Source of the DNA: Patescibacteria group bacterium
GTDB lineage: Bacteria > Patescibacteriota > Microgenomatia > Woykebacterales > JBBROZ01
Length of the DNA: 46,939 nt
Assembly (NCBI GenBank): GCA_038228785.1
Contig: JBBROZ010000002.1
Coordinates: forward strand, 1-46,939
Direction: 5' to 3'
Positions 18,001 through 39,069 of this stretch are shown piece by piece. Under the pieces are notes generated by a model. That model was not told the DNA's origin. It saw only the letters and a program-made list of their open reading frames with translations, and ran no database searches. The position numbers and the translations under genes are program-made. Each line of letters starts with the position of its first letter. Within the stretch, counting starts at the first letter, position 1.

Positions 18001-18708
18001 TTATTGTCCGGAAAATGGATCACTGCGACCCGATACTGACGGAGTCGTCGAAGCGGGGGCCGCGTAGATGGTTCTTTTTTGCAAATCAACCAACAGCTTT
18101 TCTTGCAAGGCGTTACGTTCGGGAAGAGAGTCTTCTAAATTAGCCGAGATATTGGCCAAAGGTTCGTAGTAACCTGTGATAGTGAGATCGGCTGATAATT
18201 TTTTGTCCTCACTGACATTGATGCTGATCGACTTCACCACCATCACCCGTCGGGCCGTCTCGATGCTGGTCAGGAAACCTTTGATATTAGCGAAGCCGCC
18301 TTTTATGATCACCTGGAAATTTAACGAGTTCTTTTCGCCTTTGGCAGCTGAAGTCACAAGTTGAGCGGTATCGACACTAGCCCCTGCTTTACCGGCAATC
18401 AAACTAAATTCGCCCAAAAACCCAGCTACATCCTTGTCGGATGGGATTGCGCCCGTCGTATTGACCAGCTCGCTAGTCAGCTTGGCCTGGTCCAGACCCT
18501 GCAAGGCTTTAGACTTAGTGTCCAGCGACTGCGATTTAACTCCGTCGGCGTCGGCTTGAGATTTGATCGTAACGATATCATTAATATTTGGCAACAGTAG
18601 AGTGAGAGCTATACCTAGTCCTATCACGGAAGCCCCGATGGGTAGGGCGTAGGGCAGGTAGGGCTGGTAGCGCGCTGGGATGCGGGCTTGCCAATCAGTT
18701 AGATTCAC
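18001..18708 (-). CDS. pilO: T4P alignment protein, PilO-like
   Basis: 235 aa. It has a single N-terminal TM helix, then a coiled coil and an alpha/beta C-domain. It lies immediately after pilN, with overlap. The call rests on architecture and synteny. Confidence 0.7.
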   Translation of the reverse strand: MNLTDWQARIPARYQPYLPYALPIGASVIGLGIALTLLLPNINDIVTIKSQADADGVKSQSLDTKSKALQGLDQAKLTSELVNTTGAIPSDKDVAGFLGEFSLIAGKAGASVDTAQLVTSAAKGEKNSLNFQVIIKGGFANIKGFLTSIETARRVMVVKSISINVSEDKKLSADLTITGYYEPLANISANLEDSLPERNALQEKLLVDLQKRTIYAAPASTTPSVSGRSDPFSGQ

Positions 18709-19265
18709 GGGGCCCCCTTCCTGGTCATAGATAAGGAGAAGCGGTAATCACCCTGCTTACCTCCACCGGCCACCGATATAATCTCGACATTACTGAATTT
18801 AGCGCCGCCTTTTTGGGGATCTTTTAAGACGTTAACAAAATCTCCAAAATTAGCCGGGGAAGAAGCTAATCCGGCCAAGGCTAATTTTCCGGCTGAATCA
18901 AATGACAGCGAGGTCAGAGTAACCCCATTCGGGGTAAAAGCGGCGATATCATCCAAAAGAGTTGAGAATTTGGGGTAATTGGCCAAAACTGACTGCAGAC
19001 GAATCAGTTTATTGTTGACGGTGCGATCTAGAATCTCCACTGATTTAAGACCAGTGATAGCTTTGCTGGAGGCATCGATTTTAGTTTGAAAAGCGGTGTC
19101 CTGGCTACGAAAGTAAGCGGCTCCAGCGTAACTTCCCAGCGTTAGAATGATAATAACGAGTAGAATCCCGGCCGAAGAAAGGGCTAGGACTTGTTTGCGC
19201 TGTTTGGTTCGTTCTTCTTCTCGGCCCTCTTCGGGCAGAAGATTTATTCCTGGGCTACTGGGCAA
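18705..19265 (-). CDS. pilN: T4P alignment protein PilN
   Basis: 186 aa. Conserved N-terminal INLLP motif, one TM helix, and a TTG start with a GAGGTG SD. Confidence 0.75.
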   Translation of the reverse strand: MPSSPGINLLPEEGREEERTKQRKQVLALSSAGILLVIIILTLGSYAGAAYFRSQDTAFQTKIDASSKAITGLKSVEILDRTVNNKLIRLQSVLANYPKFSTLLDDIAAFTPNGVTLTSLSFDSAGKLALAGLASSPANFGDFVNVLKDPQKGGAKFSNVEIISVAGGGKQGDYRFSLSMTRKGAP

Positions 19266-19327
19266 GAGGCACCTCGCTTTGTTCTTCCTTTAGGTTACCA
19301 GAGAGGGAGTAGTCGGGCAAGCCCTCG

Positions 19328-20371
19328 CTAGTTCGCAGAGAAATCTTTCTGGGCTAATCCAACGGCGATTGCGTAGAAGGCCCCGTCATCTTTGAATTCT
19401 GTTCCTAAGGCCGGGTTAAATGATAAGTCCTGCCAGGGATCGCCCAGCTGTCCTTCTAGACCCGTCAGCTCGGCCAGGTAGGGGATAAGGCCCGGCATTT
19501 TAGCACTTCCACCAGTCACCACCACTCTTTTGATGCTATCTTCAACGTGCTTGCCAGACCAAAAAGCAATGGCTCGCTTGACCTCGTTGCCAACCACATC
19601 AAAAATCGGTTTGATGGCGGAGGCGATCTTTCCTTCCAACTGCGTCGCGTCTAGACCGTAACTACGCTTGTATTCCTCAGCTTGGGAGGTCTCAAACCCC
19701 AGGTCTTGGGCAATGGCCCTGGTAAAAGCCAGCCCACCCGTGGCGATGGAGCGGGTAAAGACGATTTTTTTACTGCTGATCACTGATAGTTCGGTCGTCG
19801 AGGCGCCAATCTCTAGCATGAGAGTAGTCGGAGCGAATTGACTAGTTTCAAGTAAGGCCCTCGACGAAGCCGTGATCTCAGTTTCTAGGGCGTGTGGCTT
19901 AAGACCGGCCAAGTTTAGGATCTTAAGGTAACGGTTGATCAATACGTTAGGCGCTGCCACCAGTAACACTTCCATCTTTTTATCGGTTTGCCCGGCCTCG
20001 GGGCGTGTTAGAACCTGATAGTCGAGCTTGACGTCGCTCAAGGGGATCGGAATGTACTGCTCGGCTTCGTATTTGATTGCCGACTGGAGCTCGGAATCCG
20101 TCAGGGCGGACATCTCAATGACGCGGGTGAAGATTTGGGATTCAGGTAAGGAGGCCACGACGAAAGAGGTTGAGATCTTTGCTTCGCGGACCAGATTGCG
20201 AATCGACTCCGCCAGGGAGTGTTGATCAGCCTCTGATTCCGATAGAGCCCCGCGACTGGGAGTCGGGGCCATCCCAAGAGCCGTTAGTTCGTGTTTCCCA
20301 GATATTGGTTTAATTTCTGCAATTTTGATGAGCGTGGAGCCAATATCGAGGCCAAAGGTTGGGACAGACAT
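19328..20371 (-). CDS. pilM: T4P assembly ATPase-fold protein PilM
   Basis: Actin-like motifs FGLDIGSTLIKIAEI, LEIGASTTELSV and VVVTGGSAKMPGL. The start was moved to ATG 20371 (MSVPTFGLDIG), which removes the overlap with the upstream gene. Confidence 0.9.
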   Translation of the reverse strand: MSVPTFGLDIGSTLIKIAEIKPISGKHELTALGMAPTPSRGALSESEADQHSLAESIRNLVREAKISTSFVVASLPESQIFTRVIEMSALTDSELQSAIKYEAEQYIPIPLSDVKLDYQVLTRPEAGQTDKKMEVLLVAAPNVLINRYLKILNLAGLKPHALETEITASSRALLETSQFAPTTLMLEIGASTTELSVISSKKIVFTRSIATGGLAFTRAIAQDLGFETSQAEEYKRSYGLDATQLEGKIASAIKPIFDVVGNEVKRAIAFWSGKHVEDSIKRVVVTGGSAKMPGLIPYLAELTGLEGQLGDPWQDLSFNPALGTEFKDDGAFYAIAVGLAQKDFSAN

Positions 20372-20411
20372 ATAGGCTAATTGTAACCTGGTGGCAGGTT
20401 GGTGGCAACCA

Positions 20412-22262
20412 TCATGGGGCAAGCTCGATCCATCTTAAACGCAAACTTCCAGCCAACAGGTTGGCTAAGGCCGCGTTGCCGAAAATGGCCGTAGATAGGA
20501 TGAATTTATCGGCTGGGGTCGTCGAATTGGTAGATTTACCAAGGTCCCGATTGAGATCGTAGCCACCCATCGCCCAAGATGATCCATTAACGGTCAATTG
20601 ATTATTACCCGGCCCTCCGTTGTGATCGTCAAACTTGCCTTGTGAAAAGTACAGCCCGGCCATATTCTTGACCCCGCCGTCGACTAAAACATCACCACTA
20701 ACTACAAAAACGTAAGCCGAGGTAGGTTTCATGGCAAAATCGTAATAAACGGACAAATTGCCGTCAAAGAAGATAACCGCCGACACATCGGACGTAGCCA
20801 CACCTGCCGGCAAGGTGCCGCTGTCGATAGTGAAGTTGGAAGTAACTTTGTAGTATCCGGACCCGCTCCCGGGAAGCTTCCCACCGGGTAGAGCAAGGGA
20901 GGTGGCATAATATTTGGAACGCCAATCAGTATAAAGCTGGCTAGCCGCCAAGCCGAGCGGATAGTAGCTAAGTAACCAGTTTTTGGCGCTGGTAAGATTA
21001 CTGATTGATCCGGCCGAGCTGACTAGGTAGTCGGCGGTGGAGATAGAGGAGGGAGCGATATTGCCAACCGAGTGGATATCGCCGCCCTGAGTCTGAAACC
21101 AGGCCGAATTCAGGCACTGATCTCTGGAGCTAGTGTTGCCAGCGACATCCTGTATCTGGAAACGAAATTTCTTATTACATCCGGAGAAATCACTATTACA
21201 AAAATCGATATTGGGAGTCGACATGGTCGTGGAAACGGCCCCAGACCCGGACGGGTTTTGGGTGGTAGCTAGAAATTCGTCGGCAATCCAGGGGGAATTG
21301 CATTTGGTAACGTCGCTATGATGTCCCCAGGTAGTTCCCCCGTCTAACGAATACTGATACTGCCCAGTCGGAGTGGCTAACCCCGATAAACTATCATCAA
21401 CTGTAATATTGAAGCTAAAGGTATGGTCATTACCCCCATCGATTTGTTGAAAGTTGCGCCAATTGGCCGGACCCTGAGTGTCAAGCTTAAAATTAATATT
21501 TCTGGGCGCCTCTGCGACCCCGTCATTATTGGTTGCGAAATAGCTTAGGCTGTGACTACCATTGCTAGAAACTACGAAACCAACCTCAGGGGATAGCGGC
21601 TGTTCGGATAGTACAGCCCCGTCAAAGTTGACCGTTCCCGGCCCATCAATCCCTAGTTTAGGGAAGTATGATCCGGTAATAAGCGGGGAATAGCTAAGCT
21701 GCAAGCGCACCCAATTGCCCTGAGTCCCAGTCAGTGATGGGCTAGCCGAAGTATCTAAAAGCAACTTGACCCCATTTCCCAAAACGGAAGAGTATTTAAC
21801 CCAGACCGATAAGGTGTAGTTATGTCCGCTCGTCAGCAGGATTCCATTTTGGGTCTGCCAGTCTTTGTAACCTACATTGCTAGAGACTATCTTAACTGAG
21901 TTAGTGTCGAATTTGGCTGTCTGGAAGTCCTGAGAAAAAGTGGCCGAACCGGAGACCACCCAGCCGGTGACCGCGCCCGCTTCAAAGGATGGGTTGGGTA
22001 GGACGTTAACACCACTAGTAAAACTCTGGACGGTTTGGGCTCCATCTAGATTGTAAGTAATTGACTGGACCCCTGATTCCAGGTCGTCTGAGGCAATATC
22101 GACTGCTACGGTCGAGGTATACCAACCGTTATTGCCCAGGTTGCCGGTCAGAGTAGTGGTCGTAATGGGTGGGGTGCCGTCAGCTGCTCTGACGTTAAAC
22201 GAGGCGATTAGAAAAGCTACAGTTATGGGGAAAATTAAGAGTACTCGGGCAGTCCAGCGCAT
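20412..22262 (-). CDS. Secreted multidomain protein (616 aa): Ig-like modules, CBM-like beta-sandwich, conserved C-terminal domain
   Basis: Sec signal peptide (…FNVRA/ADG). Ig-like modules with NGWYTSTVAV...LDG and SLSG...YSLDGGTTWG motifs. A CBM4/9-like NPSFEAGAVTGW segment. The C-terminal 231 aa are homologous to the C-terminus of the 639-aa protein. Confidence 0.8.
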   Translation of the reverse strand: MRWTARVLLIFPITVAFLIASFNVRAADGTPPITTTTLTGNLGNNGWYTSTVAVDIASDDLESGVQSITYNLDGAQTVQSFTSGVNVLPNPSFEAGAVTGWVVSGSATFSQDFQTAKFDTNSVKIVSSNVGYKDWQTQNGILLTSGHNYTLSVWVKYSSVLGNGVKLLLDTSASPSLTGTQGNWVRLQLSYSPLITGSYFPKLGIDGPGTVNFDGAVLSEQPLSPEVGFVVSSNGSHSLSYFATNNDGVAEAPRNINFKLDTQGPANWRNFQQIDGGNDHTFSFNITVDDSLSGLATPTGQYQYSLDGGTTWGHHSDVTKCNSPWIADEFLATTQNPSGSGAVSTTMSTPNIDFCNSDFSGCNKKFRFQIQDVAGNTSSRDQCLNSAWFQTQGGDIHSVGNIAPSSISTADYLVSSAGSISNLTSAKNWLLSYYPLGLAASQLYTDWRSKYYATSLALPGGKLPGSGSGYYKVTSNFTIDSGTLPAGVATSDVSAVIFFDGNLSVYYDFAMKPTSAYVFVVSGDVLVDGGVKNMAGLYFSQGKFDDHNGGPGNNQLTVNGSSWAMGGYDLNRDLGKSTNSTTPADKFILSTAIFGNAALANLLAGSLRLRWIELAP

Positions 22263-22456: not shown

Positions 22457-23296
22457 TCATTTGCTTAAGGGGTTGGTACTACCGTTAAACAAGACGTAAT
22501 CAAATATAGCGGGTAGGGAAGGGATCGCTCTGGTCACCTGAACTACTCTGGTCGCGGTATTGCCGGCGACTCCTCGGGAGGTGATGACATAACTTTGAGA
22601 TGGCAGCCCTGAGCCGGTAACGTTGATCGTGGTCTTATTGTAGAGGGGCCGCAGGCGCAGGGAAACGGCGTTGTCTGAGCTGGCGACGCTGACGGTCAGT
22701 TTATTGTGATATTTGGCGTCATCCGAAGTTGCCAAGTTAGTCACGGGACTGTCGCTGGCGCCAGTCGGCGTAAAATTATTACTGCGCGGATCAGCATTGA
22801 CGGCGTATTTACTAAGCGTGAAAACCCCGGCGCTGTTTTTGACCTCAGTCAGCTCCAGTGAAGCCCTTGATCCACCGGTATTCTCGGTAGTATCAGCCGT
22901 CGAGACCCAGTAGACATTGAGGGTCCCACTAAATCCTGACAGGTTGATTTGCACCGAATTATCCTGGACCACGGTTTGGGTGAAGGTTGGGGATTTGGCG
23001 ACGGTATACGAATAGGTGGTCAAATTATCGGTCGGGAACTTGGCCGCTGGAGCGCTATAAGTCCCGCTAGCCGTGATAGTCGCTAGATTTTGGCGCAGGG
23101 CTTCCTCAACTCCAGCCTCGGCGGCTGCGAAGGCCCGACTACTCTGATCGGAATTAGTCGAACTTTGTAAATCTTTGATCGTCCTAGTCGATAACGAAAG
23201 CCCGATCGTTAATCCGACTAGTAGTAAGATGAACACAAATACGGCCGTTTGGCCTGACTCTTTGATGGACATTAGTTTTATTTTACTACTTGGCAT
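22457..23296 (-). CDS. PilX-like pilus assembly protein (non-canonical minor pilin)
   Basis: 279 aa. Hydrophobic N-terminus GQTAVFVFILLLVGLTIGL followed by AFAAAEAGVEEAL, typical of PilX N-terminal domains. There is no Glu at +5. Confidence 0.65.
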   Translation of the reverse strand: MPSSKIKLMSIKESGQTAVFVFILLLVGLTIGLSLSTRTIKDLQSSTNSDQSSRAFAAAEAGVEEALRQNLATITASGTYSAPAAKFPTDNLTTYSYTVAKSPTFTQTVVQDNSVQINLSGFSGTLNVYWVSTADTTENTGGSRASLELTEVKNSAGVFTLSKYAVNADPRSNNFTPTGASDSPVTNLATSDDAKYHNKLTVSVASSDNAVSLRLRPLYNKTTINVTGSGLPSQSYVITSRGVAGNTATRVVQVTRAIPSLPAIFDYVLFNGSTNPLSK

Positions 23297-23825
23297 AACT
23301 TCTTATCTCCACTAGTTGACTAAAGGTTTGATTGCCGATGTACTCCGAATGAAGGGCTGAACCGGTGGTCTTAAGGACCATCACCACTCGAACTGTGGTC
23401 GGGGCGCTCCCAGTGGGTGGAGTAACGTCAAAGTAACTCTCGCCCACGGCCGGGTTGTTACAACTAGAACTAACTACTATTTTGCTAGTATTTACCTGGT
23501 TGGCATCTTTGGTCAGATTGCCGCAGTTGAAAGCGTAAACGCTGGTCGTTCCTCCCGAAGTGACCGAGATCGAGCCGACTTTCCCACTTCCCGTAATAAT
23601 ATCGGCGACTCTAAGAGCCCGCACCGTCGTTTCCATCATGTACTGACCATTCCCACGAATGTCGTTGGCCACGGTAGCTTTAACATTGGAGTTGATGATC
23701 TGGACAAATAAGGCCGAGATGAGCGTTAGCAAAATCCCGGTCACGGCGATAACGGCCGTCAGCTCAATCAGTGTAAACCCAGACTGGGATTTGAGCGGCC
23801 GAAGTAAGTTTTTCACGGGGCCCAC
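23286..23825 (-). CDS. Prepilin-type minor pilin
   Basis: 179 aa. Class III signal with cleavage/methylation motif G/FTLIELTAVIAV (Phe+1, Glu+5). Confidence 0.8.
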   Translation of the reverse strand: MGPVKNLLRPLKSQSGFTLIELTAVIAVTGILLTLISALFVQIINSNVKATVANDIRGNGQYMMETTVRALRVADIITGSGKVGSISVTSGGTTSVYAFNCGNLTKDANQVNTSKIVVSSSCNNPAVGESYFDVTPPTGSAPTTVRVVMVLKTTGSALHSEYIGNQTFSQLVEIRSYAK

Positions 23826-24262
23826 TTGGTCAGATAGCTAACCAGCTGAACGACTTCGTTTTTGCCTTTGTCGATCCATTTGACCTGAACGTCGACTTGG
23901 ACCCGGTCATTATTGGTAGTGGGGGAGCTGGCGTTGGTAAACCTGATCTCTCTAGTGTAAACCGAGGTAATTCCCGTGTCAGTTGAGGTAACCAGCGTAT
24001 TGTTGGTTCCGATATGCCAAACACTGGCGTTGACGTAGGTCGGATAGAAACTCGCCCAGCTATTCTTATCCCTAGTCAACCTGGCCACTTCTAACCCCTC
24101 CTCAGCATACCTGGTAGCAGTGGTGCGGGATTTAGCAGCGGTCGATGAGGCGATGGCCGAAACCACCATCCCTACGATCGCCGAGACGATGACCGAAGCT
24201 AGGCCAATGGCCACTACCGATTCCACTAAAGTTGACCCGCGCTGGCTCCTAAGTAAGCTCAT
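23813..24262 (-). CDS. Prepilin-type minor pilin (Ser at +1)
   Basis: 149 aa. QRG/STLVESVVAIGLASVIV with Glu+5. Confidence 0.75.
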   Translation of the reverse strand: MSLLRSQRGSTLVESVVAIGLASVIVSAIVGMVVSAIASSTAAKSRTTATRYAEEGLEVARLTRDKNSWASFYPTYVNASVWHIGTNNTLVTSTDTGITSVYTREIRFTNASSPTTNNDRVQVDVQVKWIDKGKNEVVQLVSYLTKWAP

Positions 24263-24795
24263 TCGATCCTCCCGGTCGCTTGGAAAATCTGGACATTTTG
24301 TGTTCCGGTCCCTGTGACATTGATCGCGACCGCCCCATCCCCTGCGGGAGCGACCTCGGCGGGGGGCGTGGTCCCAACGGCGGAGCTGTCAAAAAACTTG
24401 ACTAACGATTTGTTCTCAGTAAAGACGATGAATTTGACGCTTGGTGTAGTGGTGACGCTAACCCCAACTGGGTAGTTGTTGGTATTAAGAATAGTCGGAT
24501 TGGCGAAGGACCCCGGCTGTCCGTCAGCGACCTTCTCGATGCGAACGAACTGGTAAGAATTGGAGTTGATCACAACTCCGTAGTAAGCGGCCGGTAACCC
24601 AGCTGAATTTAGTTTACTAACCAAAGCCTGCTCCTGGGCATTACGAAGCGCTCCTTTAATCTCGAGTCCCACGTTCCTAGTGTTCTCACGGCCATTAACA
24701 CCGCGTAGTCCCAGGAAAGCAATTCCCGCCAAAATGCCGATGATCGATATCGCCACGATTAGTTCAATTAAGGTGTAGCCTTTTGACGAGCTCAT
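24259..24795 (-). CDS. Prepilin-type minor pilin (Tyr at +1)
   Basis: 178 aa. SKG/YTLIELIVAISIIGILAGIA with Glu+5. Confidence 0.8.
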   Translation of the reverse strand: MSSSKGYTLIELIVAISIIGILAGIAFLGLRGVNGRENTRNVGLEIKGALRNAQEQALVSKLNSAGLPAAYYGVVINSNSYQFVRIEKVADGQPGSFANPTILNTNNYPVGVSVTTTPSVKFIVFTENKSLVKFFDSSAVGTTPPAEVAPAGDGAVAINVTGTGTQNVQIFQATGRIE

Positions 24796-26711
24796 GGAAC
24801 GATTTCACTCCAGTTGTACAACGATTCACCGATGAGCGGGGCGAACTTGGTAATGTCGTTATTATATTGAAAAGCTTCTGAGGGCAGGGCTGTGTTGGAG
24901 TTGACCCGGCCCAGGTTGATCCCGCCGTACGCCGCCACTCCACCTGAATCAGTCAGTTGGGTACTGCCAGACCCGTCCGAATAGCTCCCAGTGGATATGT
25001 AGTAACCATCGGCCTGAGAAACAGAGGAGGCGACATTGACATTACCCGAGACGATCCAGATGATGAAACCTCCACCTCCGACAGCAACCTTATCGCCCAC
25101 GGTCAGATTGACCGGGGTTCCGTCTAGAGCGTTAATGAAAACGACCAGTAATTTGCCCCCATTTACATTGATCGGAGTATTGAAAGTCACCGTATTACCT
25201 GAGATCGGGCGGATCGCTAAGACGACCGGATCAGTCCCGCTCGCCTGTAGATCACCTGAGGTGATCGAGTTGGCGTTAAGGGTAGTGACGACCTTGTCTT
25301 TGAGCCGGCTCCAGAAGTAATCGTGATCATAGCGGGTGATTTTCGATACGTAATTGGTCACTTTCCAACTCCTAATATTGATCTTGCCCGCCGATAAGCT
25401 AATATCGCCAGCCGAGGAGACGACCCCGTATTGACTTGGGTTGAAGTAAGGATAAGCAGCCGGATAGTTAGCGTCGGCCAAACCGGTAATTGATCCGACT
25501 GAATAAACCGAGGCCCCACCAGCAGTAATGAAGCGGGGCGCACAGTTATTGGAAACGGCGGTACGGACAGTACCACAGTTACTGGTCTCGGTACCGTTGT
25601 ATGGATTAACACAATTCCAAGTTGTATCAGCACAGGGACAGGCTTGGCTATTACAAGCTTGAGTAGTGCCATCTGAGCAAGACTGGGTCCCTCCGCCACA
25701 ACCAACTGAGCAAGCGCCACAAGTGACGGAGCAGGCCTGGGTATTACAAGCTCGACTAGAGCCATCTGAACAAGACTTGATACCTCCGCCGCAACTAGCT
25801 GAGCACGCTCCACAAGTAGCAGGGGCGCAGGCCTGGCTATTACAAGCTTGAGTAGTGCCATCTGAACAAGACTTGATACCTCCGCCGCAACTAGCTGAGC
25901 ACGCTCCACAAGTGACGGAGGGGCAGGCTTGGGTATTGCACGCCGCCCCGCTAGAACTACATACCCCACTTCCACATGACTTGGAACAGGTGCCGCAAGT
26001 GACCACAGGAATAGGACAGGACGCTGTATCAGTAATACAGCCGTTATCTCCTCCACAATTATTACAAGACCCACAAGCGTCCTGTTTTCCAGACCAACAT
26101 TTCACACCGGTGTTTTGGCCACTAGCGTCAGTTTGACAAATAACTAGACAGCCAGCTCCCGTAGCAGCGCACCTAGTCCCAGCTACACAATCCCCGCCGC
26201 ACGACCCCGTGGATGCTACACATGAACCTCCAGAACAAGTAGTATTGGGACCGCAATTTTTTTCTGTGTGGGCCACTAAAACTGGAGCGTTACACGCCGT
26301 TCCCGCAGAATTACAAAACGGCTGATAGTTAGCTACCGTACATGCGCCAGAACAAAAGTCGGCTCCTCCAGGACAACCGACATCAGCATTAGGTGTGCAT
26401 ACTTGAGACGGAGCTCCACAGGATGTGGTCGCACAATTGGAGGTGTCATAACAGGTTCCATCGGAAAATAAAGTGCCGTCCGATTGACAAGCAAAAACCT
26501 CAGTCCCAGTACAGCACGAGCTGATAGTACAAGTGTGTTTCTCGGTCGTCCCAGGGGTACAAGCTACGGCGCTGCTAACCGGCAGGGAGGTACCGTTGAT
26601 GATGACCCGACCTGATAAAACTAAAACCAGCAAGATGAAAATTGGAAGAAAAACTGCTAAGAAGTACGTTCCAAAAGAAGGGAGAAAACGCGCAAGTTGC
26701 CGGGAGATCAT
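24792..26711 (-). CDS. Membrane-anchored cysteine-rich repeat protein (639 aa) with TSP1-like 6-Cys repeats and conserved C-terminal domain
   Basis: N-terminal TM helix. A ~340-aa ectodomain with roughly 55 Cys (hand count), including four tandem repeats TCGxCSxxCGxGxxSCSDGxxxACNxQAC. The C-terminal 247 aa are Cys-free and homologous to the C-terminus of the 616-aa protein. Confidence 0.85.
   Translation of the reverse strand: MISRQLARFLPSFGTYFLAVFLPIFILLVLVLSGRVIINGTSLPVSSAVACTPGTTEKHTCTISSCCTGTEVFACQSDGTLFSDGTCYDTSNCATTSCGAPSQVCTPNADVGCPGGADFCSGACTVANYQPFCNSAGTACNAPVLVAHTEKNCGPNTTCSGGSCVASTGSCGGDCVAGTRCAATGAGCLVICQTDASGQNTGVKCWSGKQDACGSCNNCGGDNGCITDTASCPIPVVTCGTCSKSCGSGVCSSSGAACNTQACPSVTCGACSASCGGGIKSCSDGTTQACNSQACAPATCGACSASCGGGIKSCSDGSSRACNTQACSVTCGACSVGCGGGTQSCSDGTTQACNSQACPCADTTWNCVNPYNGTETSNCGTVRTAVSNNCAPRFITAGGASVYSVGSITGLADANYPAAYPYFNPSQYGVVSSAGDISLSAGKINIRSWKVTNYVSKITRYDHDYFWSRLKDKVVTTLNANSITSGDLQASGTDPVVLAIRPISGNTVTFNTPINVNGGKLLVVFINALDGTPVNLTVGDKVAVGGGGFIIWIVSGNVNVASSVSQADGYYISTGSYSDGSGSTQLTDSGGVAAYGGINLGRVNSNTALPSEAFQYNNDITKFAPLIGESLYNWSEIVP
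25641..26010. repeat. Tandem 93-96 bp coding repeats (about 4 units)
   Basis: Units start at 25641, 25734, 25830 and 25926 (the last is degenerate). Units 2 and 3 share an identical run CATCTGAACAAGACTTGATACCTCCGCCGCAACTAGCTGAGCACGCTCCACAAGT. Units 1 and 3 share GGCTATTACAAGCTTGAGTAGTGCCATCTGA. Confidence 0.85.
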
Positions 26712-27223
26712 TTATTGAATATACCGATGTCCCTAACGACGTAATCCGAGAGACCGGTTCCCACTATCGGCGGCGAGACTTGAGCACGGATAAACGATCC
26801 TACTTTGAAATCCTTAAAGGTGATCGTTCTGGAATCAAGATGTGTCGCGTCATACATAATCGCGCCCTTTTTTAGCTTTACAACTAACAGATAGGTCCGG
26901 TCTTTGACCGTCAGCGTAGAGTCATTCGGATCAATCGCTATTATCGTACCCGCGAGAGTCCCACGCCAATCGTAGAAAATACGATTGGATAATGTTTCTA
27001 TAGATAACGGACTAATTTTTTGTAGCTCCGCTTTAGAGACATAACCTTGAGATGATTGATAAATGAGAGCTGAGGCAAAACCAACCGCCGTAAATACAAG
27101 TGCAGTTAGTACCATCAAAACGGGCTTGCTGGTTAAAGCTGAGAATCGACCGTAAGCGCTAGCGTAAACCTTAGTTGTAGTAGGCGAGGCCGGAAAGTTC
27201 GAAGTTTGAGCAGTCTCTGGCAC
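26708..27223 (-). CDS. Membrane-anchored hypothetical protein, first gene of the T4P minor-pilin operon
   Basis: 171 aa. GTG start with a GGAGGG SD. TM helix PVLMVLTALVFTAVGFASALIY and a beta-rich C-terminal domain. The stop overlaps the next gene. Confidence 0.7.
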   Translation of the reverse strand: MPETAQTSNFPASPTTTKVYASAYGRFSALTSKPVLMVLTALVFTAVGFASALIYQSSQGYVSKAELQKISPLSIETLSNRIFYDWRGTLAGTIIAIDPNDSTLTVKDRTYLLVVKLKKGAIMYDATHLDSRTITFKDFKVGSFIRAQVSPPIVGTGLSDYVVRDIGIFNK

Positions 27224-27304: not shown

Positions 27305-27339
27305 GGGGTCGGGAGACAAAATTGTCATCTCCCGACCCC
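27305..27339 (-). terminator. Rho-independent terminator after gene 27345..27929
   Basis: Perfect 12-bp stem GGGGTCGGGAGA (27305-27316)/TCTCCCGACCCC (27328-27339). On the minus strand it is followed by CTTATCTTTTGG. Confidence 0.65.
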
Positions 27340-27344
27340 GAAGG

Positions 27345-27929
27345 TTAACGTGGCTGAACTGAGAATCTGATACTAAGGTTACGGTTTACGACTAGGGGGG
27401 TAGCAGAGGCACAGTTGGGAGTACCGTTGTACCACCAGTTACCAAACTTGGCCGTTTCGCTTCCCCGAGAGGCAATCCCCATCAGGTATGTTCCCGCTGG
27501 AACACCTTGGATGAGGTACGTTCCGTCGGTTGACTGCACCGTCGTTCCCGCTGTCGGGAAAGGCTGGCCAGTCTGCGCCAAGCTAGTGCAAAGATCCGGA
27601 GTCATCGCGTACAAATACACCGTGTATGACGTGACCGGCGCGCCCGTCGTGGCGTAAGTGGCATTACCGCTGACCGAGTACTTTGCCGCTACCGGCGGGA
27701 CCGTCGGTGCCGGGGTCGGAGCAACCGTTGGAACCGCTGTTGGAGTCTCCGTTGGCACGACTGTCGGAGCCACGGTAGGTGTGATAGTCGTCGTAGCTGA
27801 AGCGGTGTTGGTCGGAGGACTGGTGCGAGTTGCTGTTGCGACCGAAGTCGGAGAAGCCACGCTAGCTGGACTGCTGCAGGCCATACCTACAAGCAGAGAC
27901 AGGGATGCGGCGAACCAATGAGCGCGCAT
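27345..27929 (-). CDS. Secreted/lipoprotein-like protein with Thr/Pro/Ala-rich linker and beta-sandwich domain
   Basis: Start moved to ATG 27929 (MRAHWFAASLSLLVGMAC...), which has a GAGGAAAGG SD. Long TPTVAPT-type linker. The C-terminal segment TDGTYLIQGVPAGTYLM resembles carboxypeptidase-regulatory-like folds (unverified). Confidence 0.7.
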   Translation of the reverse strand: MRAHWFAASLSLLVGMACSSPASVASPTSVATATRTSPPTNTASATTTITPTVAPTVVPTETPTAVPTVAPTPAPTVPPVAAKYSVSGNATYATTGAPVTSYTVYLYAMTPDLCTSLAQTGQPFPTAGTTVQSTDGTYLIQGVPAGTYLMGIASRGSETAKFGNWWYNGTPNCASATPLVVNRNLSIRFSVQPR

Positions 27930-28079
27930 CTGATCTACCTTTCCTCGCCCGTAGGCGTTCTGGTACCCTAATTTTTGAGCACCAATTTTATCCCATAGTT
28001 TACAGTAGGCCTCTAAAATTGTCAAGATAAAGGGAAACGGAGTGCTCCAGTTTTGGAAACACTCCGTGCGAGATCGCGA

Positions 28080-29304: not shown

Positions 29305-30432
29305 GTGACCAAAACGATGAAAATATTACCGCTAGTTCTATTGGCACTGGGAGTTTCATTCTTCCTGGCTCACACTATTCAGATCCAAAAAGCGGCCACC
29401 GATCTGACAGGTTACCGCCTCTGCGCTGGACAAACAAATCAGTATGAGTGCTTAGAGTCTTATTTTCTAAAGCTCCTGCGCACTTCCGACCCCAAGACTA
29501 CTCTAGGCACACTCGCTAAAGCCGACGGCGAGGACTCCAATATCCTAAGGATCTGCCATCCGCTAGTGCACCGGATCGGGCGCGAATCCTATAACATCAT
29601 CGGAAATGCAGTGGCAGCCTTCGGGGTGGGCGACGAAACCTGCGCTAATGGCTACTATCACGGGGTACTAGAGGGCTATTTGTCCAAATCTCCCAAGCTG
29701 GAGGATGCGGTGGTAAATGTTTGTAAGAGTAACGAAGATGTCTCCGGGTACATTTACTTCCAGTGTATTCACGGGCTGGGACATGGGCTAATGTTTAAGA
29801 CCGGCGATGATATCACCCAATCACTCAAATACTGTGATCTCTTGAAATCAACTTACGACCAGCAGAGTTGTTACGGCGGGGTCTTTATGCAAAATATCGT
29901 TAACGACTTCCCGTATAGTACGGGACATGGTAAACCCGTGGTTAAAGCCAGTGACCCCCTATATCCCTGCGATGATGACGCCGTGGTGGGGGATAGATAT
30001 AAATCAGGCTGTTATTTCCTTGTGACTAGCCAAATCATCAAGTTGACCTATCCGGATTGGAGCAAGATGGCCGGGTGGTGCGACAAGGTTCCTACCACCT
30101 ACCGCTACCTGTGCTACCAGTCGATGGGACGAGATGTATCGGGAGCGACCCTACGTGACCCAGTTAAGGGCTACGCCGCCTGTCAGACCAGTGCCCCAGC
30201 GCACCTAGGGGACTGCGTCCAAGGCTTCGCTAAGGATTTACTGGAGTACGATTCCAAAAATCCCACCGCCAAAGTTTTCTGCGATCTGGTCGACAGTAAG
30301 TACAAACCGCAGTGTTTCGCCGCCTTGGGACAGATGATCGGCTCGATCTACACCAAGACGGAGGAGAGAAACAAAGCTTGCCAGGCGCTGACGAAAGATT
30401 ATTTAAATAATTGTTTGGGAATAATTAATTAA
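29305..30432 (+). CDS. Secreted Cys-pair repeat protein (375 aa)
   Basis: Signal peptide MKILPLVLLALGVSFFLAHT (alternative ATG start at 29317). About 8 helical repeats, each with two Cys (for example CIHGLGHGLMF...C, CYGGVFMQ...C and CFAALGQMIG...C). About 18 Cys in total. Confidence 0.75.
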   Translation: MTKTMKILPLVLLALGVSFFLAHTIQIQKAATDLTGYRLCAGQTNQYECLESYFLKLLRTSDPKTTLGTLAKADGEDSNILRICHPLVHRIGRESYNIIGNAVAAFGVGDETCANGYYHGVLEGYLSKSPKLEDAVVNVCKSNEDVSGYIYFQCIHGLGHGLMFKTGDDITQSLKYCDLLKSTYDQQSCYGGVFMQNIVNDFPYSTGHGKPVVKASDPLYPCDDDAVVGDRYKSGCYFLVTSQIIKLTYPDWSKMAGWCDKVPTTYRYLCYQSMGRDVSGATLRDPVKGYAACQTSAPAHLGDCVQGFAKDLLEYDSKNPTAKVFCDLVDSKYKPQCFAALGQMIGSIYTKTEERNKACQALTKDYLNNCLGIIN

Positions 30433-33987: not shown

Positions 33988-35241
33988 ATGTTAAAAATCA
34001 CCAAATTACCCTCGGGATTAAAAATAGCTACTTATAAAATAGATCGGAAGGCTGCGGCAATTTCCTTCAGTTTTAAAGGTGGGAATCGTAACGAAACCCC
34101 AACAGAATTAGGAACAGCTCATTTCCTAGAGCACATACTTCTTAAAGGAAGTAAAAAATACCCATCTCCAAAGTTAGTTAAAGAATCAGTTCAATCACTC
34201 GGAGGAAATATCGGAGGTGTTACCGATAATGAGCAAACAGTTTTCCATAGTCGAATTCTTCTTGAAAATATTGACCAACCGCTTGATACCTTAACGGATA
34301 TCATCCAATTTCCACTCCTGGACCCGGTCATAATAGAACGTGAGAAAGAGATAATAAAGGAAGAGTATAATCGCTACAACAATAACTTCGAGAGACGAGC
34401 CTTTCAGTTTGGGTCTGAACTGTTGTGGCGAGGGCATCCTCTAGGCAAACCGATTGATATTTGGGCGTTGGATAACTTAGTCAATATTACTCCCCACTCA
34501 ATTAAAGAATTTATGAGTAAGCACTATATATTTGATAATTGTGTAGTCATGATAGTTGGTAATGTGGATCATGAGGAATGGGTTGAAAAAGTGTCTAACA
34601 AATTTGACTCAATAAGTAATAAAGGTGCCGAGATCAGTCCAGTTCTAAAAAAACTACCGGGAATTCAATTTAAAGGCGAGGTCAGGGATACCAAGCAAGT
34701 TAACCTAAATGTAAGCTTCTATGCTCCTGGATTTCAAAACGAAGACCGGTTCGCTGTAAGGATTGCCAACTCTATTTGGGATTTAAGGATTATAAATAAC
34801 CTGCGCTATGAACATGGATTATCTTATTCCCCAGGTACTAGTTTTAATCCGTACCAAGAATTAGGCGCCTGGCGGGTATCTGGTGAGTTTAAATCTGGAT
34901 CGCTCAAAGAATCGACGGGAGAGATACTTAAGGAAGCCAAATTATTGTCTTCCAGTATTCCAACTGAGCAAGAGTTAGTATCGGCTAAGGCTCGAGTAAA
35001 AAGTGGTTTGGTCTTTTCTAGCGAAAGTGTTTTATCTATCCGAGATAATTACGCCGAAAAAATACTTCTGGATATTAAACCTTTAGAGATGGAAGAAGTA
35101 ATAAATCATTACGAGAAAGTATCCGTCGAGGATGTTAAACGGGTAGCGAAAATATATCTAACTGATGATTTCAAGGTATCCGCAGTCGGACCCGTAGCTG
35201 ACATTAACGAATTAGAGAAACTTTACGGAAAATCTAGCTAA
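33988..35241 (+). CDS. M16 (pitrilysin/insulinase) family zinc peptidase
   Basis: Inverted zinc motif HxxEH in TAHFLEHILLKGS. The start is set to ATG 33988 (MLKITKLPSGLKI) based on the promoter geometry. AT-rich. Confidence 0.85.
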   Translation: MLKITKLPSGLKIATYKIDRKAAAISFSFKGGNRNETPTELGTAHFLEHILLKGSKKYPSPKLVKESVQSLGGNIGGVTDNEQTVFHSRILLENIDQPLDTLTDIIQFPLLDPVIIEREKEIIKEEYNRYNNNFERRAFQFGSELLWRGHPLGKPIDIWALDNLVNITPHSIKEFMSKHYIFDNCVVMIVGNVDHEEWVEKVSNKFDSISNKGAEISPVLKKLPGIQFKGEVRDTKQVNLNVSFYAPGFQNEDRFAVRIANSIWDLRIINNLRYEHGLSYSPGTSFNPYQELGAWRVSGEFKSGSLKESTGEILKEAKLLSSSIPTEQELVSAKARVKSGLVFSSESVLSIRDNYAEKILLDIKPLEMEEVINHYEKVSVEDVKRVAKIYLTDDFKVSAVGPVADINELEKLYGKSS

Positions 35242-36154
35242 ATAGATGTAGGGTCAGAAACCACCTAAACAAAGAATCGCCCATAAACATCGTCGCTAGC
35301 ACCCCGGTCACTAGAAACGGCGCTAGGGGAATGAGCTGACGCATCTGCTTCTTACGACTAAGCACTAAACCGATCCCGACAACCGCCCCGAAGGCAAACC
35401 CGATGTACATCGCGGTCACGAGATGCGGCCAAGGAATCACCAGTCCCAAGAAGATCGCTAACTTGATATCCCCACCACCCATGGCCCGTTCGTTACTTAG
35501 ATACACGATCGCGTAGAAAATCCCGGCTAGGACTAGTCCGGCGAGAGCCCCGTACAAAATCGGCGATGCTATCTCCATAGTGTGGGTCTGGATAAATTTG
35601 GGGTCGGCGAGAAGTTGGGGACCAAACTGCAGCCGAGCCGTTAAATCACGAAAAGCTTTGACCGATAGACCGATTTTTAGGGCGCCCAGTATCACGGCTA
35701 TGACAATCGCCGGTAAAACTACCTTATCCGGAATCTCCATAAACTTGAGATCGTAGACGAGAAGTATCACTAGGAAAGTAATGAAAATGAGCTGAGAGGC
35801 GAGAGCGATGCTGTCGACTAGCCCGAGCGTCAGATTGTCGAGCCCAAAGTATTGGAAGAATGTGGCCGCGAACAGTAGTCCCGTCCCCAGCTCCACCAAG
35901 GGGTACTGAATGGAAATCGGCTCATGACAATAGCGACATCTCCCACCCAAAATCACAAAGCTGACCAGAGGGATATTATCGAGTATCGAAAGCTGATGCT
36001 TACAATTGGGACACATGCTCCGGGCGCGCCGGAAAGGCAACTGGTTACGCAGCCGATACACCAGCGCATTAATGGTCGAGCCGATAGCGGTTCCAAAGAT
36101 AAAGACAATAATCAGTATTAAAAAATTCATAAAGTAATCTAGCCGAAGTCCCAA
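35234..36154 (-). CDS. pilD: Prepilin peptidase / N-methyltransferase PilD (A24 family)
   Basis: CPNCKH...CRYCHE zinc motif, catalytic Asp contexts MEIPDKV and GGGDIKL, and multiple TM helices. The start is either TTG 36154 or ATG 36130 (MNFLILII). Confidence 0.9.
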   Translation of the reverse strand: MGLRLDYFMNFLILIIVFIFGTAIGSTINALVYRLRNQLPFRRARSMCPNCKHQLSILDNIPLVSFVILGGRCRYCHEPISIQYPLVELGTGLLFAATFFQYFGLDNLTLGLVDSIALASQLIFITFLVILLVYDLKFMEIPDKVVLPAIVIAVILGALKIGLSVKAFRDLTARLQFGPQLLADPKFIQTHTMEIASPILYGALAGLVLAGIFYAIVYLSNERAMGGGDIKLAIFLGLVIPWPHLVTAMYIGFAFGAVVGIGLVLSRKKQMRQLIPLAPFLVTGVLATMFMGDSLFRWFLTLHLFS

Positions 36155-36184
36155 TACTTTTGGATCGCCTGCTACTAAAAAGAT

Positions 36185-36204
36185 GAGGGGGCCGAAGCCC
36201 CCTC
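36185..36204 (-). terminator. Terminator/attenuator after the major pilin gene
   Basis: GAGGGGGC (36185-36192)/GCCCCCTC (36197-36204) with a 4-nt loop (CGAA on the plus strand). On the minus strand it is followed by ATCTTTTTAG. Confidence 0.65.
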
Positions 36205-36211
36205 AAGGTCC

Positions 36212-36721
36212 CTACGGGGCGACGGTGGGTTCAGTCGTTTGCAGTCCAGCTGAGCCTTTAGCGTCGATGAAGTAGACCCCACCGTTCGAGGTGGGATTCT
36301 CCATGATCGCCCAGAGCACGTAACTACTTCCCGTGTTGGAGGTAGCGTTACTTAGGTACTTGTACAAACAAGCTTGAGCCGCCGCGGCAGTACTGATTTT
36401 ACAGTTACTAGCAGCATTTTGCGGATCGGTCAGGACTTTGGGCATGTACGATTTGGAGACTAACTCTCCAGCCGTCGTATAGATCCCAGCTCCAGCACCG
36501 GCGGTTGAATCACCAGTTCCAGCACTACCTGGGTAAACCTGAAGATCGGCGTAATACCTCTCCATAGCCGTACGGTAAGTCGAGATGTCAGATTTTCTCT
36601 GAGCATCACGAGCCGATTTCTGGACTCCGGTTAGGGAGACCAAGGCAACTGAGGCGAGAATACCAATCACCGCGATCACAACCATAAGTTCGATTAGGGT
36701 GAAACCTTTGTTTCGTTTCAT
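36212..36721 (-). CDS. pilA: Major type IV pilin
   Basis: Track ORF trimmed to ATG 36721, behind the AAGGGGGGTGAG SD. Sequence MKRNKG/FTLIELMVVIAVIGILASVAL (Phe+1, Glu+5). C-terminal Cys pair NCKISTAAAAQAC. Confidence 0.9.
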   Translation of the reverse strand: MKRNKGFTLIELMVVIAVIGILASVALVSLTGVQKSARDAQRKSDISTYRTAMERYYADLQVYPGSAGTGDSTAGAGAGIYTTAGELVSKSYMPKVLTDPQNAASNCKISTAAAAQACLYKYLSNATSNTGSSYVLWAIMENPTSNGGVYFIDAKGSAGLQTTEPTVAP

Positions 36722-36791
36722 ATTCTCACCCCCCTTCAGATGGATTTGACTGATAAATTTTGAATTCGAGGTCATGTAGTTTGGCAGCCCT

Positions 36792-38003
36792 CTATTTAAT
36801 AACGTTAACGAGGTTAAACATTGGAAGCAGGATCGCCAGGGCCAACCCAGCAACACCTATTCCCATCACGATAATCATAATCGGCTCAAGAGCTGTGGTC
36901 AAATTCTTGATACGTTGATCGCTCTCCTGCTCGAAGTAAACGGCCAGCTTGGTCAATACATCATCAAGATGTCCAGTCTCTTCACCAATCGCGACCATCT
37001 GCCCGATAATTGGTGGGAAACTTTTGTTAGCTTGCAAGGGCCCAGATAGCCTGGCACCTTTTTCCACCTGAACTGCCGCCGCTTCCAATCCGTCGGCGTA
37101 AACGTTTTTCCCGACCGTATCCCTGGTAATTCGCAAACCTTCCAGGATCGGGATTCCTGATCCCACCAAGGCTCCAAAAGTCCGCACCAAGATAGCGAAA
37201 GTGACCATTTTATTTAATGGACCGAAGACGGGCAGTCGGTAACCCAAATCACTTAAAAACTTGCCACCCTTGGGGGTAGCGCGAAATCTTTTGAAAGCGA
37301 TATAGGCCCCAATCGCAACTATCGGCATGAAAATGATAGTCGCCTGCACCACGTTACTGATAAAAATAAGGATCAAAGTTGGAAGAGGTAAATCGGCGCC
37401 TAGGGAGTTGTAGACCTCGGAGATACGGGGGATCACTAGCACCATCATGGCCAGTCCAATTAGCACCATCGCCCCCGAAACTATCGCCGGATAAAGTAGA
37501 GCGCCTTTGATCTTGCCCTTGAATTCTCGTTCCTGCTCCATCTGCTCGGCTAAGCGGTTTAGGATTTTGTCCATGGATCCCGAAGCTTCACCGGCTCTAA
37601 GTAAGGCAATATAAATGTTAGGGAAAACGTCCGGGTACTTGGCCAGGGCGCTACTCAGCTGTGTTCCAGACTCAACCTCGCGCAGGGCGCTAGCTAACAC
37701 GGCTTTGAGCTTGGGATTAGTGACCTGTTTTTGCATGATACTTAGAGAGTCGGTCAGGGGTAATCCAGCCGCAATCATAGTGGCTAGTTGTCTCGTGAAA
37801 CTGGCTTTATCACCAATCGATACTCCTTGGAAACGCTCGAAGGTCCCCTGAAAAGAGAGTGCGTTATTGAATAGCTCAATTTTGATCGGAACGAGATGCT
37901 TATCTTTTAGAAGTGACGAAACCTGATTCTCGTCGGAAGCCTCGGCGTTGCCATTAACGATCCGTCCCGATTCGTCTTTGGCCTGGTATGAATACTTAGC
38001 CAC
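36792..38003 (-). CDS. pilC: T4P platform protein PilC (GspF family)
   Basis: 403 aa. Two GspF-type repeats and three TM segments. The start overlaps the pilT stop. Confidence 0.92.
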   Translation of the reverse strand: MAKYSYQAKDESGRIVNGNAEASDENQVSSLLKDKHLVPIKIELFNNALSFQGTFERFQGVSIGDKASFTRQLATMIAAGLPLTDSLSIMQKQVTNPKLKAVLASALREVESGTQLSSALAKYPDVFPNIYIALLRAGEASGSMDKILNRLAEQMEQEREFKGKIKGALLYPAIVSGAMVLIGLAMMVLVIPRISEVYNSLGADLPLPTLILIFISNVVQATIIFMPIVAIGAYIAFKRFRATPKGGKFLSDLGYRLPVFGPLNKMVTFAILVRTFGALVGSGIPILEGLRITRDTVGKNVYADGLEAAAVQVEKGARLSGPLQANKSFPPIIGQMVAIGEETGHLDDVLTKLAVYFEQESDQRIKNLTTALEPIMIIVMGIGVAGLALAILLPMFNLVNVIK

Positions 38004-39069
38004 GGCCAGCCCCCTTGACCAAACGGTTCAGCTCTTCGGTTCTAATGGTGTGAGACAAGGCCATTTCGTAACTGATAGTTCCAGCTTTGACCAACGTGGC
38101 CAGCGAGGACTCAAGTAGGATCATCCCCTGAGCGGCTGAGGTTTGGATCACGTTGTCGATCAGGTGAGTCTTACCGTCTCTAATCAGTGAGCGAATGGCC
38201 CCGTTGGCCATCAGGATCTCGACCGCCGGAACCCGTCCACCTGAGATCGCCGGGATCAAGCGTTGACTGACGATTCCTTCTAGGATCGAGGCCAATTGCT
38301 GGCGGACTTGGGCCTGCTGGTGTTCGGGGAAGACATCGATGATCCGGTCGATGGTTTGGGAGGCAGAATTGGTGTGTAAAGTGGCAAATACTAAGTGCCC
38401 GGTCTCGGCAATGGTCAAAGCGGCGCTGATGGTCTCGTAATCACGCATTTCCCCAATCAAGACGACATCAGGGTCTTCACGAAGTGCACTTCTTAGGGCG
38501 ATTTCCCAGGAATGAGTGTCTAAATGCAATTCTCGTTGAGCGATCAAAGCCCTTTTGACCGGATAGACGTATTCAATCGGATCTTCGATAGTTAGGATGT
38601 GGTTACTTCTGGTTTCATTGATCTGATTGATGAGCGCCGCTAAGGTGGTTGATTTACCCTGGCCAGTCGGGCCGGTCACCAGGATCAGTCCTTGGGGCAT
38701 CTCAGCGAAACGGGAGATGATCGGCGGGAGTTTGAGCTCTTCGATGGTCCGTATTTTGACTGGGATGAGACGCAGGGCCGCCGCCAGGTAACCTTTTTCG
38801 TAGAAAGCATTGACCCGGAACCGAGCGACTTCACCCAAGGCAAATGAGAAATCGACCTCTTTGTTGGTGAGAAGCAGATCTTTTTGCTCGGGGGAAGTCA
38901 TCTCGAAAACCAGGGCCTCAACCCTAGCGCTAGTCAAAACGTCTTCACCCGAGATCGGACGAAGTTCCCCGTCAATTCTGACCACTGGTAGGGCCCCCAC
39001 AGTCAGATGCAAATCCGAGGCATCGTGGGAAATAGTGTATTCAAGGTATTTTTGGATCTCTAGTGGCAT
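37996..39069 (-). CDS. pilT: T4P retraction ATPase PilT
   Basis: 357 aa. Walker A GPTGQGKSTT, ILTIEDPIE, LIGEMRD, GHLVFATLHT and the PilT-type AIRSLIRDGKTHLI. Confidence 0.92.
   Translation of the reverse strand: MPLEIQKYLEYTISHDASDLHLTVGALPVVRIDGELRPISGEDVLTSARVEALVFEMTSPEQKDLLLTNKEVDFSFALGEVARFRVNAFYEKGYLAAALRLIPVKIRTIEELKLPPIISRFAEMPQGLILVTGPTGQGKSTTLAALINQINETRSNHILTIEDPIEYVYPVKRALIAQRELHLDTHSWEIALRSALREDPDVVLIGEMRDYETISAALTIAETGHLVFATLHTNSASQTIDRIIDVFPEHQQAQVRQQLASILEGIVSQRLIPAISGGRVPAVEILMANGAIRSLIRDGKTHLIDNVIQTSAAQGMILLESSLATLVKAGTISYEMALSHTIRTEELNRLVKGAGRG

Follow-up and report, generated by a model that had tools for sequence, protein, structure and literature searches.

Can an adhesion repeat known chiefly from animals and malaria parasites have been reduced to about half its size and put to use at the pilus of a bacterium? 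This question is raised by a locus of a Patescibacteria group bacterium (assembly GCA_038228785.1), contained in positions 1 to 46,939 of contig JBBROZ010000002.1. This whole 46.9-kb stretch, which makes up the complete contig, is the window referred to below. On its minus strand, at 24792-26711, the listing of open reading frames (ORFs) contains a gene (stop codon at 24792-24794) for a secreted or membrane-anchored, non-pilin protein of 639 residues, which includes four tandem, six-cysteine modules and is encoded among pilin-like genes. In the simplest reading of their sequence, these modules would be miniature thrombospondin type 1 repeats (TSRs), in which a layer of stacked tryptophan and arginine was swapped for a disulfide and the middle loop was deleted. 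The combined reading, that the modules are derived from TSRs and that the protein is a pilus-associated adhesin, is given a probability of roughly 55%. On its own, the derivation from TSRs is considered very probable; the role as a pilus-associated adhesin is given a little less than an even chance.

The cysteine content of the protein is extreme. All 56 cysteines lie within residues 51-390, and the last 249 residues contain none, in good agreement with an earlier, sequence-only reading of this DNA, which had counted about 55 cysteines and a cysteine-free C-terminus of 247 residues. The span to which that reading referred, 25536-26564, corresponds exactly to residues 50-392. Cysteine makes up 16.5% of the Cys-rich region against 0.61% (80 of 13,114 residues) across the 35 other ORFs of the window (binomial P ~1e-60), and the N-terminal and C-terminal parts of the protein itself also differ in their cysteine content (Fisher P = 7e-15). 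The four tandem modules are present with the sequences quoted earlier. They comprise 29-32 residues each and start at residues 238, 267, 299, and 330. Module 1, a shortened variant (CGSGVC), was assigned to residues 236-266 (25914-26006, minus strand, as for all parts of the gene); module 2, TCGACSASCGGGIKSCSDGTTQACNSQAC, to residues 267-298 (25818-25913); module 3, whose DNA is nearly identical to that of module 2, to residues 299-329 (25725-25817); and module 4 to residues 330-360 (25632-25724). The latter aligns with the C-type modules, described below, of the related proteins P0003, P0005, and P0006. A degenerate fifth module of the tryptophan-bearing W-type, DTTWNCVNPYNGTETSNCGTVRTAVSNNC, was recognized in the family alignment at residues 361-392 (25536-25631). 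It retains W365, C367, G373, C379, G380, and R383, all in columns invariant across that alignment, and it aligns with the W-type module (...CNTQAC) of the distant relatives P0004-P0006. The DNA of the array repeats in tandem with a unit of 96 nt (3.2 copies, 82% matches), copies 2 and 3 being almost identical and copies 1 and 4 more diverged. Since no two copies are identical, the array reflects true tandem duplication and not an assembly artefact.

Each of modules 1-4 contains the CSxxCGxG core turn and a C-terminal CxxxxC cap. The tryptophans (WxxW) and arginines (RxR) that form the layers of a TSR are missing from all four, and only the fifth module retains one tryptophan. A cysteine stands at the position of the last tryptophan in modules 1-4 and at that of the first arginine in modules 2-4, so that two of the six cysteines of a module fall on W/R positions and not on those of C3/C4 in a TSR. 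The earlier description of the modules as compressed and devoid of the WSxW layer thus holds for these four, with the addition that the tryptophan and its arginine partner have been replaced jointly by cysteines. With accepted TSRs (PF00090 and its sisters PF19028, PF19030, and PF19035) the modules share the CSxxCGGG turn, the terminal C-N-x-Q-x-C(P), the number of six cysteines and, in prediction, three short strands per module in a tandem array of an extracellular, putatively adhesive protein; the family of the query also includes bona fide TSRs. The strands were obtained in an AlphaFold2 (AF2) model of a double module, built with a dedicated 13-row alignment, which reached a predicted local distance difference test score (pLDDT) of 81. 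The modules differ from TSRs in their length (about 30 against about 50 residues), the middle loop (xCxxPxPxxGGxxCxG) being deleted, in the replacement of WxxW and RxR by cysteines at the last W and first R, and in scores that lie below every Pfam TSP model. The eukaryotic machinery for C-mannosylation and O-fucosylation is not expected in a bacterial host. A natural precedent for a short TSR is offered by the TSP1 domain of CCN3 (PDB 6RK1; PF19035), in which the layers are incomplete, with a single W layer, and the disulfides are arranged differently. Three R layers are kept there, however, within at least 44 residues, whereas the query modules have no R layer in about 30.

The relationship with TSRs is carried by profile comparisons. 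A direct phmmer search of the PDB with the repeat region returned only noise, and a word-indexed search with a double-module profile gave no match at its database-scale threshold. When a profile of 11 family modules was compared with all PDB sequences, 27 of the 29 matches were TSR proteins, including thrombospondin-1 (TSP-1) as the best (E=2.6e-4), CCN3 among the best (E=3.8e-4), ADAMTS-5/13, CSP, TRAP, and F-spondin. A profile of the four query modules alone gave eight matches, every one to a TSR protein (TSP-1, E=0.005). These matches consist of two ordered pieces, CSasCGgGikScS corresponding to CSVTCGGGVQKRS and tqACNtQACp corresponding to NQICNKQDCP, which flank the deleted middle and align in order to the third TSR of TSP-1. 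An independent profile was assembled from modules of seven relatives, of which six match the Pfam model TSP_1 and one matches TSP1_spondin. On the query it scored 12.6, 17.6, and 8.0 bits for modules 2, 3, and 4, and 0.4 bits for the shortened module 1, while the best of 2000 composition-matched shuffles of the Cys-rich region reached 6.7 bits (mean -5.3). Modules 2-4 outscore all shuffles, and composition alone is therefore not the explanation.

Relatives of the query provide the connection with accepted TSRs. The Pfam TSP_1 gathering cutoff of 21.6 bits is passed by P0013, P0017, P0080, P0090, and P0126 (22.2-26.3 bits), and in these five proteins the passing TSR is the module immediately before the C-terminal domain, a homologous position. 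Precomputed Pfam annotation places PF00090 on P0156 and PF19028 on P0174, which means that bacterial TSRs are already known to the databases. The full-length TSR of P0156 matches human thrombospondin-1 with E=1.5e-20, and its 39 matches in the PDB are without exception TSR proteins. This transitive link through TSP_1-positive relatives, together with the shared position before the C-terminal domain, points to common descent of the modules with accepted TSRs. The resemblance to eukaryotic TSRs remarked upon in the sequence-only reading is thus supported by the PDB profile matches, the Pfam-passing relatives, and the match of P0156 to TSP-1, and very probably reflects homology.

The course of the change can be followed within the family. 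In a set of 29 distinct modules from 21 proteins, two positions were compared, -3 from the CS cysteine and +4 after CGxG, read here as the last tryptophan and the first arginine of the TSR layer arrangement. The pair is C/C in 10 of the 11 C-type modules, the exception being query module 1, with its partner cysteine at +2, and cysteine never occurs at +4 in the 18 other modules (0/18). W/R is found in all seven long modules (32-42 residues) and W/(N or D) in nine 28-residue modules of the W-type. The distant relatives P0004-P0006, of 26-27% identity, have tryptophan where the query modules have their first cysteine. A graded series is found at the same position before the C-terminal domain, comprising a canonical TSR (P0156), a 32-residue W/R form that still passes the Pfam cutoff, a 28-residue W form, and the C/C form. 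The TSR fold is defined by its 'CWR layers', formed by the pi-cation stacking of tryptophan and arginine, and variants in which W layers are lost, or W and R are substituted together, occur naturally (10.1101/779553). By implication, a C/C pair at the W/R positions would form a disulfide where the W-R layer had been. Literature searches found no paper linking TSRs with the Candidate Phyla Radiation (CPR), Patescibacteria, or pili, and, as far as these searches show, the C/C-substituted 30-residue module has not been described.

The modules are followed by a domain that defines the family, placed by profile, AF2, and Foldseek at residues 393-639 (24795-25535, minus strand). It is free of cysteine, ends in W-x-E-[IV]-x-P, and is predicted to be a beta-solenoid. 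The query thus belongs to proteins with a 'PWWQ...W-x-E-V-A-P' C-terminal domain of about 250 residues after a variable exported head. A profile of the domain, whose seed includes the query and its operon paralogue, was compared with 1.84 billion representatives (clusters at 50% identity) and retrieved 3,847 clusters at E<=1e-3, 658 of them at E<=1e-30. In all 3,847 the domain closes the protein, and the N-terminal regions that precede it vary in length. No Pfam family, including DUF3494 (PF11999), and no PDB sequence matched it. The full-length query matched six proteins among 5.8 billion clusters, and conservation of the last ~250 residues extends to each of the six and to a 616-residue protein encoded nearby. 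Among 154 retrieved family sequences, the N-terminal regions have a median cysteine content of 5.5%, with 32 at 8% or more, and the C-terminal 250 residues are nearly free of cysteine. The heads include TSR-like modules, other Cys-rich units, carbohydrate-binding modules (CBMs), and immunoglobulin-like and fn3-like domains. In one member, P0013, a TSR and the C-terminal domain are accompanied by a pretoxin-HINT/intein-like domain at the N-terminus (PF07591, E=4e-11); domains of the HINT type usually free a cargo through self-cleavage.

The family occurs for the most part in Microgenomates/Woesebacteria. Members with names belong to Candidatus Woesebacteria and Microgenomates, and the reference-genome loci to Patescibacteria and a few Chloroflexota. 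The C-terminal domain is encoded, as partial matches, in three loci of metagenome-assembled genomes (MAGs) from Chloroflexota and Pelolinea (L011, L013, L015), so either the family extends beyond Patescibacteria or these contigs are mis-binned. Four further members (L003, L006, L008, and L009, in CAZOUV01, CAZOVJ01, CAZSXP01, and CAYMZX01) come from MAGs tagged 'uncultured Gammaproteobacteria'. These tags look wrong, and L003 has pilin and PilM genes resembling those of the window.

In the full-length AF2 model (34 sequences), only the C-terminal domain was predicted with confidence, at pLDDT values above 90 for residues ~460-620. This domain was modelled as a right-handed beta-solenoid flanked by a helix, and its nearest structures in Foldseek were the DUF3494 ice-binding beta-solenoids 4nu2 and 7bwy (E 9e-4, prob 1.0, target template modelling score (TM) 0.46-0.50). 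The likeness is bounded by a TM of only 0.45-0.50 and by the lack of a sequence-level match, and nothing suggests ice binding. Weak matches were also obtained to the Thermus pilin ComZ and to the Caldicellulosiruptor adhesin domain 4wa0 (prob 0.2), a tapirin. Tapirins are solenoid adhesins encoded beside a type IV pilus locus.

At the other end of the protein, a hydrophobic helix at residues 14-33 (26613-26672), also modelled as a helix by AF2, has the character of a Sec signal or signal-anchor and not of a prepilin leader. The distant relatives P0004-P0006 have typical AxA signal peptides at this end, and export through Sec is indicated by both features. No family of Pfam or NCBIfam, including N_methyl/prepilin and PilY1, matched the whole protein, and nothing relevant was found when the repeat region, a single module, the N-terminal Cys-rich half, and the C-terminal domain were searched separately. 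The identity of a prepilin or minor pilin was rejected, given that N_methyl (PF07963) does not match and a G-F/M-T-L-x-E motif is missing from the N-terminus. Membership of the PilY1 family was rejected as well, with no match to PF05567 and a beta-solenoid as the C-terminal model. Between the helix and the modules, residues 51-235 (26007-26561) form an N-terminal Cys-rich half with 28 cysteines in an irregular pattern. It had no match in Pfam or among PDB sequences, and its AF2 pLDDT is below 50. Its sub-units also occur in P0003, query residues 51-93 resembling residues 194-236 and residues ~105-175 resembling ~118-185 of that protein. Their order is reversed between the two proteins, which indicates module shuffling within the head.

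The gene is the second of a compact unit on the minus strand. A terminator-like hairpin (27305-27339, a 15-bp stem with nine GC pairs) ends the preceding gene, and its location upstream of the gene for a 171-residue membrane protein (26708-27223) likely marks the start of the transcription unit. This first gene, without a Pfam match, overlaps the Cys-rich gene by 4 nt. Downstream, at 22457-24795, follow four genes for pilin-like proteins, three N_methyl prepilins and one PilX_N-like protein according to Pfam, with overlaps of 4, 4, 13, and 11 nt beginning at the Cys-rich gene, so that the first six genes of the unit overlap by 4, 4, 4, 13, and 11 nt. The earlier proposal of a pilus-operon protein co-transcribed with minor pilins is thus well supported by the overlaps of 4-13 nt between start and stop codons and by the upstream hairpin. 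After a gap of 194 nt lies the gene of the 616-residue secreted paralogue (20412-22262), and then come PilM, PilN, and PilO (18001-20422). The paralogue bears a CBM_4_9 head and shares the C-terminal domain of the query (BLASTP E=9e-8 across the final 115 residues). PilB, PilT, PilC, a pilin, and the PilD prepilin peptidase are encoded at 35234-40931, also on the minus strand. All of these were assigned by Pfam. No secretin or PilQ-like gene was found in the window with Pfam and the ORF list, as reported for CPR pili, which occur without PilQ (10.1101/335083). The same synteny was observed in the locus of P0001 (L001) and in that of the distant, module-bearing P0006 (L017), and pilin or PilM genes were found near L003, L005, and L010.

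Several other features of the surroundings were recorded. The hairpin stands directly after the gene of a 226-residue Thr/Pro-rich protein (27345-28025, minus strand) with a weak CarboxypepD_reg-like match. On the plus strand, at 29305-30432, a 375-residue protein with 18 cysteines (4.8%), a signal-peptide-like N-terminal stretch, and no Pfam family is the second Cys-rich protein that is apparently exported; its gene lies close to the pilus unit in divergent orientation. The syntenic locus L001 is without the 616-residue CBM_4_9 paralogue. A pair of unannotated ORFs (~560 and ~90 residues) directly precedes the family member in L017 (5982-7996) and L020 (4989-6991), the former the pilus locus of P0006 and the latter the non-pilus locus of P0160, and may form with it a conserved three-gene cassette. 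The housekeeping genes of the window encode ClpP, ThrRS, IF3, PheST, PBP1A, TyrRS, RecG, NusB, RNase III, S16, TrmD, and GyrBA.

A role resembling that of PilY1 is suggested by the conserved tail and variable head, the exported N-terminus, the coupling with a minor-pilin unit, the second family member, and the conserved gene arrangement. By analogy, the favoured explanation is that of an accessory protein that is exported through Sec, is not itself a pilin, and serves a type IV pilus lacking a secretin, as occurs in CPR/Patescibacteria. Such a protein would be built of two parts, a constant C-terminal beta-solenoid of ~250 residues and a lineage-variable N-terminal head. In the query, the head would be a rod exceptionally rich in disulfides, with four tandem mini-TSRs and one degenerate module at its end. 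The modules would descend from genuine TSRs such as those of other family members, keeping the CSxxCGGG turn and the terminal C-N-x-Q-x-C, losing ~20 residues of the middle, and exchanging the tryptophan of strand A and the arginine of strand B for a cysteine pair. The C-terminal domain might dock to the minor-pilin complex or to the cell surface, in the manner of PilY1 in the type IVa pili of Gram-negative bacteria, and the rigid, protease-resistant, TSR-like array could display an adhesive surface for a glycan or protein of the host cell, to which the CBM-headed paralogue of the same operon might add a second specificity. The stalk-like rigidity or ligand mimicry envisaged in the sequence-only reading is speculative. 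The 639-residue protein is, in these terms, a good candidate for a host-attachment factor.

The comparison with known pilus proteins is close in organization and distant in sequence. With PilY1/PilC the protein shares its large size and non-pilin nature, the Sec-type N-terminus, the location inside a minor-pilin operon, and the division into a conserved C-terminal and a variable N-terminal part. Unlike these proteins, it does not match PilY1/Neisseria_PilC (PF05567), its C-terminal part is predicted to be a beta-solenoid and not a beta-propeller, and its gene precedes the pilin genes instead of following them. In Saccharibacteria, large non-canonical proteins of minor-pilin loci have been tied to host binding; the accessory domains of PilX1 and PilX2 of TM7x have been proposed or shown to mediate it (PMC11623550). 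Those proteins are likewise large products of CPR type IV pilus loci without a PilD-type leader (PMC11623550), but they show a pilin-like lollipop with a jelly-roll or beta-propeller, belong to another phylum, and have no sequence relationship that could be found with the query.

A number of observations weigh against this explanation as a whole. The search with TSP_1 (PF00090) proposed in the sequence-only reading returned nothing at E<=10, whether the full protein or just its repeats were used, and the same was true of TSP1_spondin, TSP1_ADAMTS, and TSP1_CCN. In the full-length AF2 model, most of the Cys-rich region has a pLDDT below 50, and Foldseek of the double-module model against the PDB found no TSR and nothing with E<1. 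The Fisher P of 5e-7 for the covariation was computed ignoring phylogeny. The three disulfides per ~30-residue module (a-d, the replacement pair, b-e, and c-f) are a prediction. The sole structural relatives of the C-terminal domain are ice-binding or adhesin-type solenoids at modest TM, and its binding to pilins is a proposal by analogy. Pilus genes within 6 kb are found at about one-third of the reference-genome loci and are missing at about two-thirds; P0169 is encoded in a dcw cluster and P0160 among unrelated genes.

In the most probable of the alternatives, the protein would be a general surface or secreted adhesin, or a wall-associated protein, whose solenoid itself binds or anchors, its position in the pilus operon reflecting co-regulation only. 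The family members outside pilus loci, the adhesin-type solenoids among the best Foldseek matches with the weak one to 4wa0, and the Sec-type rather than prepilin N-terminus would all be expected of such a protein. They are countered by the tight 4-nt overlap with the pilin-like genes on one side, inside a single unit, by the retention of this position in two further loci, one of them that of a relative of only 26-27% identity, and by the second family member in the same operon. An adhesin merely co-regulated with the pilus is rather unlikely on balance and nevertheless retains substantial weight.

With regard to the modules themselves, CSxxCGxG and CNxxxC could have arisen independently in a convergent repeat rich in Cys, Gly, and Ser, with a fold unrelated to that of TSRs. 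Such an origin would account for the silence of Pfam TSP_1 and Foldseek on the query, for modules of ~30 instead of ~50 residues without W and R layers, and for the shortness of the matching segments, whose PDB E-values are only 1e-2 to 1e-4. It would not account for the graded TSR-to-C/C series within one family and at one position, for PDB matches of the query profile that are exclusively TSR proteins, or for the shuffle control, which excludes composition, and convergence is considered improbable. Less probable still is an ectodomain whose cysteines bind metal in a zinc-ribbon-like or metallothionein-like manner, or are redox-active, instead of forming disulfides. A CxxC (CGAC) is present in each module, many CPR bacteria would live in anoxic groundwater, where disulfides should be harder to form, and no Dsb or VKOR gene was found within the window with Pfam and the ORF list, although such a density of cysteines would, according to the sequence-only reading, call for an extracytoplasmic disulfide-forming system. 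The protein is, however, exported as far as its N-terminus indicates, the cysteines are even in number (56 in total and six per module), four positions per module coincide with the disulfide-forming cysteines of TSRs, and CPR bacteria have been reported to encode, and to be enriched in, an MdbA-like oxidoreductase and VKOR (10.1101/335083). A pseudogene, mis-assembly, or non-coding repeat, which could be suspected from the DNA tandem repeat and from the absence of the exact product from a collection of 15 billion proteins that holds four other proteins of the contig, is effectively refuted by the uninterrupted 1,920-nt frame, by full-length homologues with conserved Cys columns and C-terminal domain (frame disruptions in relatives being what the sequence-only reading had looked to as a refutation), and by repeat copies whose divergence, to 82% matches, lies for the most part at sites that are synonymous or conservative, and the missing entry, shared by PilB of the same contig, is probably due to another start codon in the deposited call or to an uncalled gene.

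The reading of the protein as a pilus-associated adhesin with TSR-derived modules has consequences for the biology of the bacteria that carry it. CPR/Patescibacteria are thought to account for a large part of the diversity of bacteria and to live in attachment to other cells, and their host recognition is largely obscure. Type IV pili are the main suspects for this recognition (10.1101/335083, PMC11623550). A very large, unannotated family with swappable extracellular heads, often encoded in minor-pilin operons, would supply concrete adhesin candidates. In addition, genuine TSRs are documented in CPR bacteria, together with a series in which Trp-Arg stacking gives way to a disulfide in a domain of half the size, a series relevant to fold evolution, to the origin and spread of TSRs, and to compact disulfide-stabilized scaffolds. 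A broader and more doubtful proposal is that TSRs radiated inside the CPR on a very large, hitherto unrecognized family of pilus-associated host-recognition proteins, where the Trp-Arg ladder was shortened stepwise and finally replaced by a disulfide, yielding a new structural class, a ~30-residue 'mini-TSR' with which ultra-small episymbionts grip their hosts at the pilus tip. If true, this radiation would parallel the use of TSRs by apicomplexans in TRAP and CSP, and would raise the question of TSR transfer between domains of life.

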